In this document: one piece after another, positions 45,621 through 55,541 of the stretch
Position numbering within the stretch: position 1 is the stretch's first letter
How the letters are laid out: every line of letters starts with the position of its first letter
Sequence record: MW822011
Source: Shigella phage TB004
DNA length: 64,000 bases
Strand: one strand, 5' to 3'
Made by a program: the position numbers and the translations under genes
The notes under the pieces: model-generated
What the model was told of the DNA's origin: nothing
Databases searched by the model: none
The model's input: only the letters and a program-made list of their open reading frames with translations

Positions 45621-45893
45621 ATGAAAACATTTAAAGAATTTATCAATGAAGCTACTTTTAACGAAAAAGTAAAAATTAGTAAAGCTGTCAAGACTTTGAT
45701 TGCTGACATCAATTACCTATATGATATTGATTTAACTGACTATGTAACAGTTGGTAACAAACGTAACTTTTTCGTGTTTGACATCTCTGAACTTGACCAG
45801 AATCAAATTAACAACATTGAGCGTTTTGCTAATGATAAGGGTCTTCGTCATGAGTCAGCGGGTTATAAAAAATACGCAATTTATTTAAAATGA
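45621..45893 (+). CDS. internal protein with capsid targeting sequence (IPI locus)
   Basis: Starts MKTFKEFINE|A (CTS with I-x-E protease site); own early promoter; adjacent to 57B. Confidence 0.65.
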   Translation: MKTFKEFINEATFNEKVKISKAVKTLIADINYLYDIDLTDYVTVGNKRNFFVFDISELDQNQINNIERFANDKGLRHESAGYKKYAIYLK

Positions 45894-45953: not shown

Positions 45954-46262
45954 ATGAAAACATTTAAAGAATTTATCAATGAAGCGGCTGCGCCAAAGAC
46001 ATTCGTTATTAATACTCAGGCGAGTCTTGATGATGAATACGCGGAGGCAATTCTGAAGTCACTTGCTAAGAACGGTGTTGAAGTAATTGCTTCGGACTTT
46101 AAGAAAGGGGCTTCCGAGATGTTTATTTCTATAACTAAAGGATCTAAAGCTAAGATTAAATCATCATTCGGAGTTGCTCGTACCGATCAAATCGACAATC
46201 ATGACTTTAAACAAACTGGTGCTAAACGGCAGAATACAATTGCATCACGCGGAATAAAATAG
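45954..46262 (+). CDS. second CTS-bearing internal-protein-like ORF
   Basis: 102 aa; first 37 nt from ATG identical to previous gene (MKTFKEFINEA); own early promoter. Confidence 0.6.
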   Translation: MKTFKEFINEAAAPKTFVINTQASLDDEYAEAILKSLAKNGVEVIASDFKKGASEMFISITKGSKAKIKSSFGVARTDQIDNHDFKQTGAKRQNTIASRGIK

Positions 46263-47964: not shown

Positions 47965-48039
47965 GGATGTGTAGCTCAGTGGTAGAGCAGTTGACTGTTA
48001 ATCAATTGGTCCATGGTTCGAATCCATGCATGTCCGCCA
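47965..48039 (+). tRNA. tRNA-Asn (anticodon GUU)
   Basis: Canonical cloverleaf: acceptor GGATGTG/CATGTCC, D-stem GCTC/GAGC, loop CTGTTAA, T-arm CATGG-TTCGAAT-CCATG, CCA. Confidence 0.75.
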
Positions 48040-48164
48040 AATTTGTGACAACTGTCACATTAATATCTACTTGACGCGATTATAGGGTTGAACTGATCAC
48101 TCTTCTCTTAATTTCGTGTGAAGACATCTTGATTGTTGGAGTAGGTATTAATGTGAACTAATTA

Positions 48165-48241
48165 CGGGGTGTAACTCAATTGTATAGAGTAGCGGTCCTC
48201 TAAACCGCAGGTTAAAGGTTAGAATCCTTTCACCCTGGCCA
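48165..48241 (+). tRNA. tRNA-Arg (anticodon UCU)
   Basis: Acceptor CGGGGTG/CACCCTG, D-stem ACTC/GAGT, anticodon stem GCGGT/ACCGC with loop CCTCTAA, T-arm AAAGG-TTAGAAT-CCTTT, CCA. Confidence 0.7.
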
Positions 48242-48262
48242 AATTATTGAGAGAATAATATT

Positions 48263-48817
48263 ATGAGAAGTGATGTAGACTGGGACCAAATTAATTTGGC
48301 TATAAAAGCTGGATTAATATACCGTGGTAATTTTGAAATAACACAAGAACTAATTGAAAATGTTGCTTTTCTTAAAATAACAGACAAGAAAAAATTCTTT
48401 TCTATGACTAAAGCCAAACGCTTGTCAATATGGAAAGTATTTTGTAGGACTGCCGCCCTAAATCTTTTGAAATTTAAAGATGAATTTGATATAGAAAAAA
48501 GCTATCGGCAAGCTTTCGTATACATAATGGTAGATACTACAAATCCTAATTATTATAAAATAGGAAGAAGTATAGAACCCGATGTTAGAGTTATAACAGC
48601 AAATACATTTTCACCGTTTAAAAGTTTTAAAATAGTATCATTTAGATATTCCCAGGATGCAGTAGAACTTGAAAAATATATGCACAGCATTTATAATCAG
48701 GACCATATAAATGGCGAATGGTTTTTCTTTCATGACATAAGTTCCATAGTTAAAAAATTAGATACTAAATCTACACAATTTGAAATACCAAATGAGAAGC
48801 CGGGTCGCTACCGGTAA
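48263..48817 (+). CDS. hypothetical protein with C-terminal T5orf172 (GIY-YIG-related) domain
   Basis: 184 aa; C-terminal FVYIMVDTTNPNYYKIGRS...VELEKYMHSIYNQDHINGEWFFF fits T5orf172/MUG113 pattern; begins 22 nt after tRNA-Arg. Confidence 0.6.
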   Translation: MRSDVDWDQINLAIKAGLIYRGNFEITQELIENVAFLKITDKKKFFSMTKAKRLSIWKVFCRTAALNLLKFKDEFDIEKSYRQAFVYIMVDTTNPNYYKIGRSIEPDVRVITANTFSPFKSFKIVSFRYSQDAVELEKYMHSIYNQDHINGEWFFFHDISSIVKKLDTKSTQFEIPNEKPGRYR

Positions 48818-49126
48818 GTCGTCGGACTGATGTTCCCTGCGTAAGGACTGGTCTTAATAAATCTTTACGATTTGTTAATATCCCCTTACATCACAGCAGA
48901 AACGGCGCACCGAATTATCGATTCGAGGAAATATCTTTGCCGTAAGCCGAGTAGCGTTTTTGACGGAACGTTCGGATATGGTCGAGATATGGCCTTTTAA
49001 AAATATTGAGTAGCGTCAACTACTTAATAACCGGGTTCGAATCCCGGCGTTTCGTACAAACACTTGCCTTAGCAGGTGGAACCCCGACAAGGTATATAGC
49101 CCCTTCCGAAAGGTTGGGGCTTTTTT
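48818..49126 (+). ncRNA. candidate structured non-coding RNA region (possibly stable RNA(s) co-transcribed with the tRNA array) ending in an intrinsic terminator
   Basis: About 310 bp with no ORF of 60 aa or more on either strand in an otherwise compact genome; hairpins incl. CCGGG-TTCGAAT-CCCGG (49031-49047, tRNA T-arm-like) and AGCCCC...GGGGCT+T6 (49098-49126). Confidence 0.3.
49098..49126 (+). terminator. intrinsic terminator closing the tRNA-region transcript
   Basis: AGCCCC-(12 nt loop)-GGGGCT then T6. Confidence 0.6.
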
Positions 49127-49127
49127 G

Positions 49128-49135
49128 TATAAATA
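49128..49135 (+). promoter_or_regulatory. late promoter upstream of the 49171 ORF
   Basis: TATAAATA immediately after terminator hairpin. Confidence 0.55.
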
Positions 49136-49170
49136 TAGTAAACAATAAACCTACTTTCTAAGGACCATCA

Positions 49171-49551
49171 ATGTATACTTTTAATGAATTTTTAGCCGAA
49201 ACGGAAGTAATCACCGAAGCCGGCGTACGTATGACAAAAGAGAAATGGCAAGCTGCTTACGATGCTATTTCTGGTACAAAAACTAGTACAGAGTTTTTCA
49301 AAAACGTTCAAGCCATGTACGGTATCGACACTTCTAGCCAAAAAGAATATTACAGAGCTTCTAAAGCATTCAAAGATATTGTTAGTGGTGGTGTTTCTGC
49401 TAAATCGGGTTCGCCTAAAGTAAAACCTGCTCCTACCATTCCTAAACCTGCGACCCCTAAAGCAAAACCTGAGCCTAAGCCGGAAGTAAAAGCACCTCCT
49501 AAAGCTCCTGCTCTTAAGTTTGATACTTCTAGCCTGGAAAAAAAAATATAA
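49171..49551 (+). CDS. hypothetical Lys/Pro/Ala-rich protein, 5' part of a probable split gene
   Basis: 126 aa ORF behind TATAAATA late promoter; ends inside an A9 run. Confidence 0.5.
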   Translation: MYTFNEFLAETEVITEAGVRMTKEKWQAAYDAISGTKTSTEFFKNVQAMYGIDTSSQKEYYRASKAFKDIVSGGVSAKSGSPKVKPAPTIPKPATPKAKPEPKPEVKAPPKAPALKFDTSSLEKKI

Positions 49552-49792
49552 ACAACTATCTTCGCTTGTTCGTGATATTGAATCCGATACATCTTCACTC
49601 GTTCGTGAATTCAATAGTCTTCGCAATGGCCAACATATCAACAACCTTGATACCCCAGACCTTTATCGTCTTTATTTGACTATCGAAGGTTTGAAGTATA
49701 CTCAACCACTTCACGATGCGATTAAAGAAAAACTTCGTCAGGCAGGTCGTTTGGCTGCTGACGCTGCTCAGTATGCAAAAACCCGTAAATAA
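49520..49792 (+). CDS. 3' part of probable split gene (+1 frame relative to 49171 ORF)
   Basis: Overlaps previous ORF by about 30 nt across the A9 run; no good independent start/RBS. Confidence 0.4.
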   Translation: MILLAWKKKYKQLSSLVRDIESDTSSLVREFNSLRNGQHINNLDTPDLYRLYLTIEGLKYTQPLHDAIKEKLRQAGRLAADAAQYAKTRK

Positions 49793-49870
49793 TTAAGTTA
49801 CAATCACTTAAGCCCCTTCCTATGGTTGGGGCTTTCGGGCATCTAGGGCAGATAAATTTTTCACAAAGTT

Positions 49871-49899
49871 GTTTACTTCTCCTTGAGGTATGATACTAT
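49871..49899 (+). promoter_or_regulatory. T4-type early promoter
   Basis: GTTTAC ... TGATACTAT. Confidence 0.5.
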
Positions 49900-49929
49900 A
49901 GACCTATCAAAACAAATGAGGAAAACATT

Positions 49930-50433
49930 ATGAGTCTTTATACTGAACTGAATAAAAAATCTGAAGAATCGCGTGACGTTGTTTTTAAAAATGTACAAAA
50001 GCGTATTTTGGAAAAGATGTATGATGCTGCATCTAAAGGTGAAAAATCATGCCGCTTTCCGATGAGATGTTCTACAGATTTATGCTCAAATACTATTGAA
50101 TGGTTAGAAAGCGAAGGTCTTACTGTAGAGAAAAACCCGGCGACTTCTATTGACGGTGAATCATATATTAGTATTTCTTGGGATAAACCACAGGTTAATG
50201 AGAAAGACGGTGATTGGGTTGTGGATGTTAAGACTTCTGATGGTGGACGTTCTGTTGAAGTTTCAGCCGTAGTTAAAGGTACACATGGGCAAAATAGCTG
50301 GGGATGTGGTGGTGAAGAAAAAGAAATTGTTCTTAGTGTGATTGCAAGGTCCACTAGCAATAAAATTGCCCAGAGCATCATCTATGCTGCGTGCATTGAA
50401 GCTGGAAAAATTTGCAAAATTAAAAATAAATGA
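49930..50433 (+). CDS. hypothetical protein
   Basis: 167 aa; early promoter cassette upstream. Confidence 0.55.
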   Translation: MSLYTELNKKSEESRDVVFKNVQKRILEKMYDAASKGEKSCRFPMRCSTDLCSNTIEWLESEGLTVEKNPATSIDGESYISISWDKPQVNEKDGDWVVDVKTSDGGRSVEVSAVVKGTHGQNSWGCGGEEKEIVLSVIARSTSNKIAQSIIYAACIEAGKICKIKNK

Positions 50434-50494
50434 TGTACAAACACCAAGGACGGTGTTACTATAGACCTATCAAATCAAATGAGAGGAAAATAAA

Positions 50495-50722
50495 ATGGCT
50501 AAAGTTAGTATTGATGTCGTTGATTATGAATACACAGAAGAAGTTATTCGCAACCGCCACCCTGAAGTTCGTATCGATTCAGTCCAAGATTCCAAGTTCT
50601 GGACAACTGAGCTTAATCTGAGTGGTTCTTATGAAGCCGTTAAGAAGTTCATGGTTGAAGAATACTGCGAAGGCATGCACCCGGAAGACGCCGAGTTTTA
50701 TGTCAATTTGATTAAAAAATAA
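50495..50722 (+). CDS. hypothetical protein
   Basis: 75 aa ORF with RBS GAGAGGAAAA. Confidence 0.5.
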   Translation: MAKVSIDVVDYEYTEEVIRNRHPEVRIDSVQDSKFWTTELNLSGSYEAVKKFMVEEYCEGMHPEDAEFYVNLIKK

Positions 50723-50792
50723 TTTACAAACTCTTGAGAGCAGAGTATAATGCTCTCATTGGATAATAAACCACCAATTGAAAGGTAATAAT

Positions 50793-51386
50793 ATGAACAC
50801 ACTGAAGAAACTTGTTGAATTCATCCGCACTAAACTGGGTACTGCTATGGCTAAAAATCTGACTGTCGAAGAACAGTATAACGCAGCTGCAGATAAGTTG
50901 ATTACCCAGATCAAAGAACTAAAAATGGCTTCTGTTAAATCTATTAATGAAGAAAAACGTATTCGCGAACTTGTTATTGAAAAGAATAAGCAAGCCGCTT
51001 CTAAGGAACGTGAAATTCGTAAGCTCCTGGCTGAAGGACAAGATGTTACCATGCATGCCAAGCTTGGTCTTCTGTATCGTCGAACTGCCGAACAACTTAA
51101 TACAAAAGCTGACGGGTATGCCGCTATGCGAATTGAAATTGCTCGTAAGGTTGTTGAACTTGACGATGCTCGTCAGAATCTGGCAATCAAACTCGAATAC
51201 ATTCGTGAAACTCGAGCAGCTAATGCCCTTGGTATCTCTACGGCTGATGATGTAATTGAAATCGCTGCACTGACTAAGGTTGATATCGAAGACACTCTGA
51301 CTCGTGTTGAAACGTTCAATGGTAATATTTCTGGGGTTGAAACTACCTCTGCCGATGTTCAGGAATATATTAATTCTCTGAAATAA
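50793..51386 (+). CDS. coiled-coil protein (PspA/IM30-like by composition; uncertain)
   Basis: 198 aa from ATG at 50793; heptad-rich, followed by GC hairpin. Confidence 0.55.
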
Positions 51387-51391
51387 TGATA

Positions 51392-51407
51392 AGGGGCTTC
51401 GGCCCTT
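51392..51407 (+). terminator. stem-loop after coiled-coil gene
   Basis: GGGGC-TTCG-GCCCT (UUCG tetraloop). Confidence 0.4.
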
Positions 51408-51427
51408 ATTACTTGGAGTAAATAGGA

Positions 51428-52042
51428 ATGAAAATGAAAATGCAAAGTGATTTCAATTCAATGTTTGAAGAGTTCCAAAGACAGGTTGATGTTCCAGACC
51501 AATTACTAAATGCTCTTAAACGTATGGCAGAAGGACGTAATTATTATTGGGGTTCTTCATATGAAACTGATGAAAGTCTTTCTGGAAGATTTTCCAGAGG
51601 TAAAAAGTCTTTAATACGTCCTGGAATACTTATTAACAATATTGAATCAATTCATTTATTGACATGTGATTTTGATGTTGAATTTACTGATTTCATTTCT
51701 CCTGAATGGACAGTTTGTTATTTAAACGACGATTTTGATTATCTCGGTGTTTATAGTTTAAGTGACGCATGGTTTAAACGTAACTTACAAAAGTCAAATT
51801 TATTCTATATTGATACTACAGTAAAATTTCAGGGAAAGAAATATTTCTTTACTCTTATAGTTGATTCTGAAACGAAGCATGAAAATAAACGTATTCTTAG
51901 TAAAAGAAATATCTTGAATATTGTTGATGATCTTTTTGATAAATTAGTGGAAAATCCTAATTTTGAAAGTGATTTATTACTAGAAAAATTTGTTAAGGAA
52001 TGTAGAGAATATGTCAAAGCCATCACTATACCTTCCAAGTAA
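51428..52042 (+). CDS. hypothetical protein, member 1 of tandem family (soluble)
   Basis: 204 aa; C-terminal EKFVKECREY motif shared with next three genes. Confidence 0.55.
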   Translation: MKMKMQSDFNSMFEEFQRQVDVPDQLLNALKRMAEGRNYYWGSSYETDESLSGRFSRGKKSLIRPGILINNIESIHLLTCDFDVEFTDFISPEWTVCYLNDDFDYLGVYSLSDAWFKRNLQKSNLFYIDTTVKFQGKKYFFTLIVDSETKHENKRILSKRNILNIVDDLFDKLVENPNFESDLLLEKFVKECREYVKAITIPSK

Positions 52043-54244: not shown

Positions 54245-54281
54245 ATTCACAGTTACTAATTAAAATATTTAAAGGAAACAC

Positions 54282-54849
54282 ATGAAAACCTATAAAGAAT
54301 TTATCGCTGGAAAAGGCCAAAGGCATTAATAAAGATGAGTGGACTTACCGAGGAAACGGCTTTGACCCTAAAACAGCCCCTATTGAACGATACTTAGCTA
54401 CAAAAGCTTCCGACTTTAAAGCTTTCGCTTGGGAAGGACTTCGCTGGCGTACCGATCTAAATATTGAAGTTGATGGGCTTAAATTTGGCCATATTCAAGA
54501 TGTTGTTGCTAGTAACTTGGATGCAGCTTTTGTTAAAGCTGACGGTGACCTTCGTCGCTGGAATTTAAAACTATTCTCTAAACAGAAAGGCCCGGTGTTT
54601 GTGCCTAAAGCTGGTAAATGGGTTATTGATAATAAATTAGCTAAGGCTGTCAACTACGCTGGTCTTGAATTCGCCAAGCATAAATCATCATGGAAAGGTC
54701 TTGATGCAATGGCCTTCCGTAAAGAATTTGCTGATGTTATGGCTAAAGGCGGCTTTAAGGCAGAAATAGATACCTCTAAAGGTACGTTTAAAGACGCTAA
54801 TGTTCAGTACGCTTACGCTGTTGCTAATGCAGCCCGTGGTAATTCTTAA
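54282..54849 (+). pseudogene. ipIII: internal protein III gene, apparently frameshifted after codon 9
   Basis: CTS MKTYKEFIA in frame 3 stops after 15 codons (54327-54329); body (…EKAKGINKDEWTYRGNGF…ARGNS) open in frame 1 from 54286; consistent with one extra G at 54309/54310. Confidence 0.7.
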
Positions 54850-54957: not shown

Positions 54958-55260
54958 ATGAAAACATATCAAGAATTTATTACTGAAGCGCGAGTGAGTG
55001 CAGGTAAATTAGAAGCCGCTATAAATAAAAAGGCCCATTCATTTCACGATTTGTCCGATAAAGACCGTAAGAAACTTGTAAGCCTTTATATTGACAAAGA
55101 GCGTATTCTCGCTCTTCCTGGCGCTAATGAAGGTAAACAGGCCAAGCCTTTGAATGCTGTCGAAAAGAAAATTGATAACTTTGCTTCTAAATTCGGTATG
55201 TCTATGGATGACCTTCAGCAAGCGGCTATCGAAGCAGCTAAAGTAATTAAAGGTAAATAA
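54958..55260 (+). CDS. ipII: internal protein II
   Basis: 100 aa, CTS MKTYQEFITE|ARV. Confidence 0.8.
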   Translation: MKTYQEFITEARVSAGKLEAAINKKAHSFHDLSDKDRKKLVSLYIDKERILALPGANEGKQAKPLNAVEKKIDNFASKFGMSMDDLQQAAIEAAKVIKGK

Positions 55261-55317: not shown

Positions 55318-55541
55318 ATGACTCGTATTAATTTGACTTTAGTATCTGAACTTGCTGATCAACATTTAATCGCGGAATACCATGAATTGCCGCGTGTTTT
55401 TGATATAATTCGTAAACACGCGGCAAATGGAAAAATGATTATAATCCATGCAAATCAGCTATTAAGTTGAGTCAACAACGACTCGATGAAAAAATTTTAA
55501 TGAAGCCGCATTGGTATAAGTATTACGGCAAAAATATTTAC
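55318..55541 (+). pseudogene. denV: denV (endonuclease V, pyrimidine-dimer glycosylase) remnant with internal deletion and frame change
   Basis: N-terminus [28 protein letters not shown] then stop at 55468-55470; C-terminal homology SQQRLDEKILMKPHWYKYYGKNIY in a different frame; about 190 bp of the middle missing relative to the 138-aa T4 enzyme. Confidence 0.75.

Follow-up and report, generated by a model that had tools for sequence, protein, structure and literature searches.

The window analyzed here is a 64,000-nucleotide stretch of Shigella phage TB004 (sequence record MW822011). Two overlapping ORFs on its plus strand meet at a run of nine adenines. The first, ORF1 (49171-49551, +), extends from an ATG at 49171 to a TAA at 49549-49551 and encodes 126 amino acids. 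The second, ORF2 (49520-49792, +), lies in the +1 frame, is open from a TTG at 49520 to a TAA at 49790-49792 and would encode 90 amino acids. The A9 run (49538-49546, +), flanked by G and T, marks the change of frame, and the ORF1 stop codon falls 3 nt past it. All of these coordinates, first given in the initial annotation, were confirmed when the sequence was read again and compared with the ORF list. Upstream of the ATG are a match to the T4-type late promoter consensus (TATAAATA, 49128-49135, +) and, 6 nt ahead of the start codon, a Shine-Dalgarno sequence, AAGGA (49160-49164, +). A GC-rich hairpin followed by a T run (49098-49126, +), read from the sequence as the terminator after rnaC, lies directly upstream of the gene, and a near copy of this GC hairpin is found downstream (49811-49835, +). 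A scan for sigma-70 promoters and terminators identified nothing exceeding shuffled sequences, and an Rfam search of positions 48700-49900 returned no meaningful match.

ORF1 encodes a leader, an N-terminal helical domain and a linker rich in Pro, Lys and Ala; its product comprises 125 native residues and one out-of-frame Ile before the TAA. The part of ORF2 from position 49547 onward supplies the C-terminal end of the same gene, a domain of three helices (YKQLSSL...TRK). The initial annotation found no convincing start or ribosome binding site for ORF2, and we agree, since neither ATG nor GTG occurs in its frame, leaving TTG as the only potential start, and no Shine-Dalgarno sequence can be read before 49520. 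The annotation also proposed that loss of one A would fuse the two ORFs. Computed removal of one A does yield a continuous protein of 206 amino acids.

The gene is rich in short repeats. The linker (49396-49518, +; residues 76-116) is predicted to be disordered, is built of imperfect 24/42-nt repeats that span 49400-49518, and shows a 6-nt length polymorphism (Ala-Ile or Ala-Val) among relatives. Near-identical 13-mers occur at 49327 and 49522, and a 33-nt repeat (49558-49608) codes for LSSLVRD / TSSLVRE at the start of the C-domain. The peptide DTSSL is present in both ORFs, and DTSS is coded three times. It had been suggested that DTSSL on both sides of the junction argues for a fusion. The repeat is real; its second copy is not conserved in other genera, being kept only in the Mosigvirus-type allele, and we rejected it as evidence that the ORFs belong together.

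Evidence that the two ORFs form one gene comes from relatives. A megablast search with positions 49100-49860 matched 74 phage records, nearly all of them Mosigvirus. The four relatives inspected closely each have a single annotated CDS of 621-627 nt, and in alignment their junctions differ from that of the window by A8 only. Tract length in related phages, a check proposed in the initial annotation, was assessed with a 231-nt query placed across the tract: 57 of the 60 matches listed have a length that fits A8, PNJ-6 fits A9, and CEV1 and ECCR664 fit A7, as direct reading of the sequences agrees. The A8 relatives have a single CDS of 202-208 amino acids, in which GAA AAA AAA T is read as Glu-Lys-Lys-Tyr. 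A tblastn search with the repaired protein found 143 records. Among the 53 matches listed with at least 91% query cover, all align as a single piece in one frame save PNJ-6, which aligns in two pieces. The tblastn matches span Dhakavirus, Winklervirus, Kagamiyamavirus, Tegunavirus, Marfavirus and Karamvirus, down to approximately 30% identity; E. coli genome and plasmid collections gave no match. The repaired protein also matches phrog_2280, a family to which PHROGs assigns no function, over residues 1-201 and the whole profile (E = 1e-58), that is, across both halves. In the protein alignment, the junction falls inside the best-conserved motif of the family, FDTSSLxKKYKQLSSL.

Because the relatives have one ORF and the break lies in a conserved motif, the split is best described as the disruption of a single ancestral gene, and on this comparative evidence both ORFs are one conserved late gene of T4-like phages. 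The prediction of a single protein of about 205 amino acids thus stands, since the orthologs are single CDSs of 202-208 amino acids with A8 and the phrog_2280 profile covers both halves. For the same reason "indel" is the fitting member of the pair "slippage site or indel" under which the junction had been described. The idea that these are two true separate genes overlapping by chance has in its favor that gene callers give both ORFs as products in several assemblies. It is effectively refuted by the start of ORF2 (TTG, no Shine-Dalgarno sequence, no in-frame ATG or GTG), by orthologs that are all single ORFs, and by the position of the junction in the most conserved motif of the family. A search for orthologs arranged as two genes with starts of their own, the case named beforehand as contrary to fusion, found single ORFs among those inspected, with PNJ-6 in two pieces.

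The intact protein of approximately 206 amino acids is modeled in four parts. A capsid-targeting leader of the T4 type comes first, followed by a small N-domain made of helices; a disordered linker rich in Pro, Lys and Ala then leads to a three-helix C-domain. The AlphaFold model (pLDDT 70.9) has three helices in the N-domain, a disordered linker (model residues 74-113) and three helices in the C-domain. In this model the frame changes within the first C-domain helix, so the A9 product would lack the C-domain. The capsid-targeting-sequence-like leader (49171-49218, +; codons 1-16, MYTFNEFLAETEVITE) can be aligned with the N-termini of the T4 internal proteins IPI, IPII and IPIII. The N-terminus reads MYTFNEFLAE-TEVITE, and that of the JS98 ortholog MKTYNEFLNE; both resemble MKTYQEFIAE of IPII and IPIII, and IPI has MKTFKEF...TITE. 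The cleavage motif of the T4 prohead protease, gp21, is [LI]-x-E. Two motifs of this type are present in the leader, LAE at residues 8-10 and ITE at residues 14-16, and E16 is invariant in an alignment of nine orthologs. A late-promoter core was found upstream of all 8 of the 8 orthologs inspected, as TATAAATA or, in three of them, as ATAAATA; late transcription is indicated here by this match to the promoter consensus. Since it combines a T4-type capsid-targeting leader with a late promoter, the gene probably encodes an internal head protein. Such a protein would be packaged in the head and ejected with the DNA, both packaging and proteolytic processing being predicted from sequence motifs.

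T-even internal proteins are a diverse set with only the targeting sequence in common (PMC3012670). Like IPI, IPII and IPIII (PMC3012670), the protein described here begins with M-x-T-[FY]-x-E-F-[IL]-x-E followed by [IL]-x-E, is preceded by a late promoter, and is encoded in a plastic region beside a tRNA and rnaC/rnaD cluster. Its similarity to the T4 internal proteins ends after about 20 residues, and such confinement to the leader is typical of these proteins. It differs from them in that homology does not extend past those residues and in its two-domain helical architecture with a long Pro/Lys linker. Database searches added little about function: Pfam has no family for it (the best match, E = 0.1, fails the cutoff), PHROGs has only phrog_2280, and comparison of the AlphaFold model with BFVD and the PDB gave no hint of function, the matches being either members of the family or helical bundles of a generic kind. 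Four more ORFs of the window (45621-45893, 45954-46262, approximately 54272-54846, and 54958-55260) have a capsid-targeting leader; two begin with MKTFKEFINEA, one is an IPIII homolog and one an IPII homolog. With the split gene, the phage thus codes for at least five proteins bearing such leaders within 10 kb.

With nine adenines, the tract exceeds every other homopolymer in the 64 kb, of which just three are as long as 7 nt. Dinucleotide-preserving shuffles, counted on both strands, predict 10.1 +/- 4.4 A9/T9 runs versus 1 observed, so that long homopolymers are depleted in this genome. The A9 run is by itself not more than composition predicts. Its non-random aspect is its place inside a conserved coding sequence, which it breaks. 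As the longest homopolymer in the window it is also the site most prone to error, and the main rival to a genuine frameshift is that the phage DNA has A8 and an intact 206-amino-acid gene, the ninth A being a homopolymer miscall in the consensus. We consider this a serious possibility, if not the outcome we would expect. The window gene shows 0 mismatches outside the tract to an A8 contig (L026), and over the whole stretch from 49080 to 50626 one A is the sole difference between the two sequences, as a miscall would leave them. Opposed to this reading is the state of the rest of the window. About 80 other genes are intact in comparison with a Tequatrovirus at 96-98% DNA identity, none of them frameshifted despite 363 homopolymers of at least 5 nt, including the three 7-mers; a generally noisy assembly can be rejected on these grounds. 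The sole exception among the genes compared is a remnant of denV (endonuclease V) at 55318-55541 with an internal deletion. Residues 1-41 of the protein are coded in an ORF at 55318-55470 and the C-terminal portion, RLDEKI...WYKYYGK, in another frame from 55467, with approximately 57 residues deleted between them; it is probably a pseudogene.

Tract lengths other than A8 recur in sequences from other sources. A9 was found in at least four allelic backgrounds (the window, PNJ-6, P0013 and P0020/P0021) and A7 in two (CEV1 and ECCR664). A large protein collection contains truncated forms of 126 or 128 amino acids ending in EKKI, again in at least four allelic backgrounds, together with a 170-amino-acid form of the A7 type. 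An exact look-up of the window's ORF1 in a contig index gave no entry. The P0020 form, an ENA/Logan lineage, is present on 15 contigs from several metagenome samples and two assembly pipelines, and an IMG/VR contig of the same lineage is also A9. For one lineage, two pipelines arrived consistently at A9 in at least six samples, which argues against a miscall and is the reason that real A9 alleles of this gene probably exist. Elsewhere the same strain was met with A8 and with A9: contigs L029 (A8) and L020 (A9) are identical over 1,505 nt, the tract excepted.

For all four A9 backgrounds the collection holds an exact "repaired" A8 protein twin, and all of the frameshifted forms are tip alleles of zero divergence. 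This pattern fits a tract that is hypermutable and does not retain its broken alleles, errors in sequencing, or a combination of the two; a zero-divergence A8 twin for every A9 allele is also what error would produce. The suspicion of error is strengthened by deviant lengths in both directions (A7 and A9) in several noisy or low-quality records: CEV1 is labeled "UNVERIFIED", ECCR664 is a 134-kb record with 100 features, and PNJ-6 is a "partial genome". The Logan pair P0013 and P0043 carries different frameshifts, and shared substitutions suggest that the two are the same phage. Two independent NCBI bacterial-isolate assemblies each contain a whole Mosigvirus genome as one contig (169,206 nt, P0019/P0040; 170,875 nt, P0036/P0039), and the ends of both contigs fall exactly inside the A tract, leaving partial proteins that end ...FDTSSL and begin KKYKQL. 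That these two assemblies open exactly there suggests mixed tract lengths or ambiguous reads at the tract in both, and such breaks can likewise be counted in favor of a miscall. Weighing on the other side, homopolymers of this length in T-even phages are measured mutational hot spots (10.1101/2025.10.21.683753).

The reading that we favor, at a probability of roughly 0.55, is that the window carries a frameshift allele arising from unprogrammed +1A replication slippage at a hypermutable tract. On balance we infer that the extra A is in the phage DNA and not in the assembly alone, and so is a real allele. Homopolymeric tracts of this kind are the classical slipped-strand hot spots of Streisinger. 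The A8 tract is made by the Mosigvirus-type codons GAA-AAA-AAA, and slipped-strand mispairing during replication by a T4-type polymerase, the presumed cause, would add a base to it or remove one. The window allele would have gained one base, becoming A9. Translation would then end two codons on, and the main product would be the 126-amino-acid form with leader, N-domain and linker and without the C-domain. Rare one-base deletions in the RNA, or +1 slips of tRNA-Lys on the A run, would recreate the exact wild-type sequence, and reversion to A8 at the DNA level should be frequent. The A9 allele is thus pictured as probably leaky and reversible, and not as a programmed recoding site. Comparable tracts have been measured in T-even phages: in clonal stocks, length variants of the A9 tract of T2 agt make up about 7e-4, its reversion outpaces that of a point mutation about 1000-fold, and the A6 tract of T4 rIIA behaves like the agt tract (preprint, 10.1101/2025.10.21.683753).

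The initial annotation also raised the possibility of two products from one gene, in which A9 would be a functional slippery site, acting through RNA polymerase slippage or +1 ribosomal frameshifting and giving a short and a long protein at a set ratio. Thermus dnaX, with A9, and Shigella mxiE are known cases of slippage. The present locus resembles them, and the A11 tract of C. rodentium tssM1 (PMC4256274), in having a poly(A) run just before a premature stop (here within two codons, 3 nt past the run), with the remainder of the protein in another frame, so that slippage would allow a full-length protein to be made beside the short one. A run of sufficient length to be slippery is present at the frame junction, a slip by RNA polymerase or by the ribosome would yield the exact wild-type junction, EKKY, and E. 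coli ribosomes are known to slide on consecutive AAA codons (PMC4363877).

Several observations nevertheless make programmed recoding very unlikely. The interrupted form of tssM1, mxiE and dnaX is conserved and functional, and both products have been shown; here A8 in frame is the norm and A9 a rare, zero-divergence tip allele, so that the orthologs share no two-ORF architecture with a slippery site. Nor is the long tract itself retained in other genera, in which it is absent or interrupted. GAA AAA AAA is found in the Mosigvirus-type allele only, and the other genera have GTT AAA AAA, GTT AAA AAG, ACC AAG AAA or GTA AAC AAG in its place; unlike the long run, the Lys-Lys pair has been conserved. 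Elements that stimulate ribosomal recoding are lacking as well. No RNA structure was found downstream, positions 49520-49640 folding no better than shuffled sequences (z = +0.34), and no upstream stimulator resembling a Shine-Dalgarno sequence can be read before the A run. Because ORF2 lies in the +1 frame, rescue requires that the transcript lose one base or that the ribosome slip by +1; the classical -1 shift of the ribosome on A_AAA_AAA was considered and rejected, as it gives the wrong frame. Unlike tssM1, mxiE and dnaX, the locus would have to be rescued by deletion and not by insertion. When slippage was examined systematically with reporters, E. coli RNA polymerase did not slip on fewer than eight A's, preferred poly(T), and on the poly(A) runs included gave no rescue by deletion that could be detected (PMC6260861). 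The proposal of two products as a designed feature is consequently not upheld, given that the split is not conserved, the tract is absent elsewhere, no structure accompanies it and a -1 deletion is needed. Some low-level leak to the wild-type EKKY junction is plausible, with nothing indicating design.

Unprogrammed slippage, the reading favored here, places the locus among features already known: it adds one more case to the homopolymer frameshifts, or hypermutable tracts, of T-even-type phages. It shares with T2 agt A9 and T4 rIIA A6 (10.1101/2025.10.21.683753) an A run inside an ORF of a T4-like phage, the tract length of 8-9 equals that of agt, and, as at the T-even contingency loci, +/-1 length variants recur among otherwise identical genomes, and it is plausible that the phage can dispense with the gene and that the gene has to do with host interaction. 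Two features that mark contingency loci can be recognized at the sequence level: the A8/A9 tract is a mononucleotide repeat of at least 6 nt within a coding sequence, and +/-1 changes recur among near-identical genomes, to which sequencing error may contribute. The difference is that support at agt and rIIA is experimental and here it is comparative, from isolates and metagenomes, and that the present locus is absent from those described.

A stronger proposal is that the A8 tract is maintained as a contingency switch in the gene for an injected, capsid-internal protein. Slippage would then keep yielding two kinds of phage, one packaging the full-length protein and the other a form without the C-domain, and the population would be hedged against hosts whose defenses that C-domain blocks or triggers. 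The A9 lineage in metagenomes and the A8/A9 polymorphism within one strain would represent such a switch caught in nature. We consider maintenance of this kind unlikely. The more limited description, that of a possible natural phage contingency locus in a putative injected protein, does not imply selection for switching.

For annotation, which is where the finding chiefly matters, both ORFs belong in a single entry marked as a frameshifted gene, or as a corrected gene should reads show A8, and not as a recoding site. The finding is otherwise ordinary, and its bearing on contingency loci is modest. Injected internal proteins include known anti-restriction factors. The locus is a natural instance, in a T4-like phage, of an A8/A9 tract that switches length again and again among isolates and metagenomes. 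The gene around it has the features expected of an injected internal protein, and the locus offers a convenient natural test case for the recent claim that phages use homopolymers as contingency loci.

The genome in the window is of the Tequatrovirus type and matches phage 236Ecol005PP at 96-98% identity; it is interrupted by a Mosigvirus-type patch of approximately 2.2 kb (about 49080-51300) with its left junction at about 49057-49093 and its right junction at about 51250-51400. The patch carries the split gene, a 167-amino-acid ORF (49930-50433), an frd.3-like ORF (50495-50722) and an e.6-like ORF (50778-51386). None of 50,697 phage records covers at least 80% of positions 48000-52000 or spans a patch junction, and the patch may be either a natural inter-genus recombinant or an assembly chimera. 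The split gene is bordered on one side by the rnaC terminator and on the other by a promoter region also found in T4, where the corresponding gap is only 284 nt. Upstream of the gene are the homologs of the T4 stable RNAs rnaD (48792-48911, 88% identical to T4) and rnaC (48918-49056, 99% identical to T4). Rfam has no family for rnaC or rnaD, and a "tRNA-Lys" in a relative's annotation of this region was not confirmed here by ARAGORN.

Near-identical GC-rich hairpins at 49101-49123 and 49813-49835, direct repeats 712 nt apart with the form CCC(C)TTCC-GAAA/TAT-GGTTGGGGCTTT, flank the gene. T4 has one copy of the hairpin and no gene at the same position. To judge from this arrangement, the gene could be gained or lost as a cassette, with the flanking hairpins as the substrates. 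Farther upstream, between a tRNA-Arg gene and rnaD, lies an ORF of 184 amino acids (48263-48817) that is conserved, at 99% identity, in the closest Tequatrovirus; the T4 homing endonuclease gene segB occupies a similar position.
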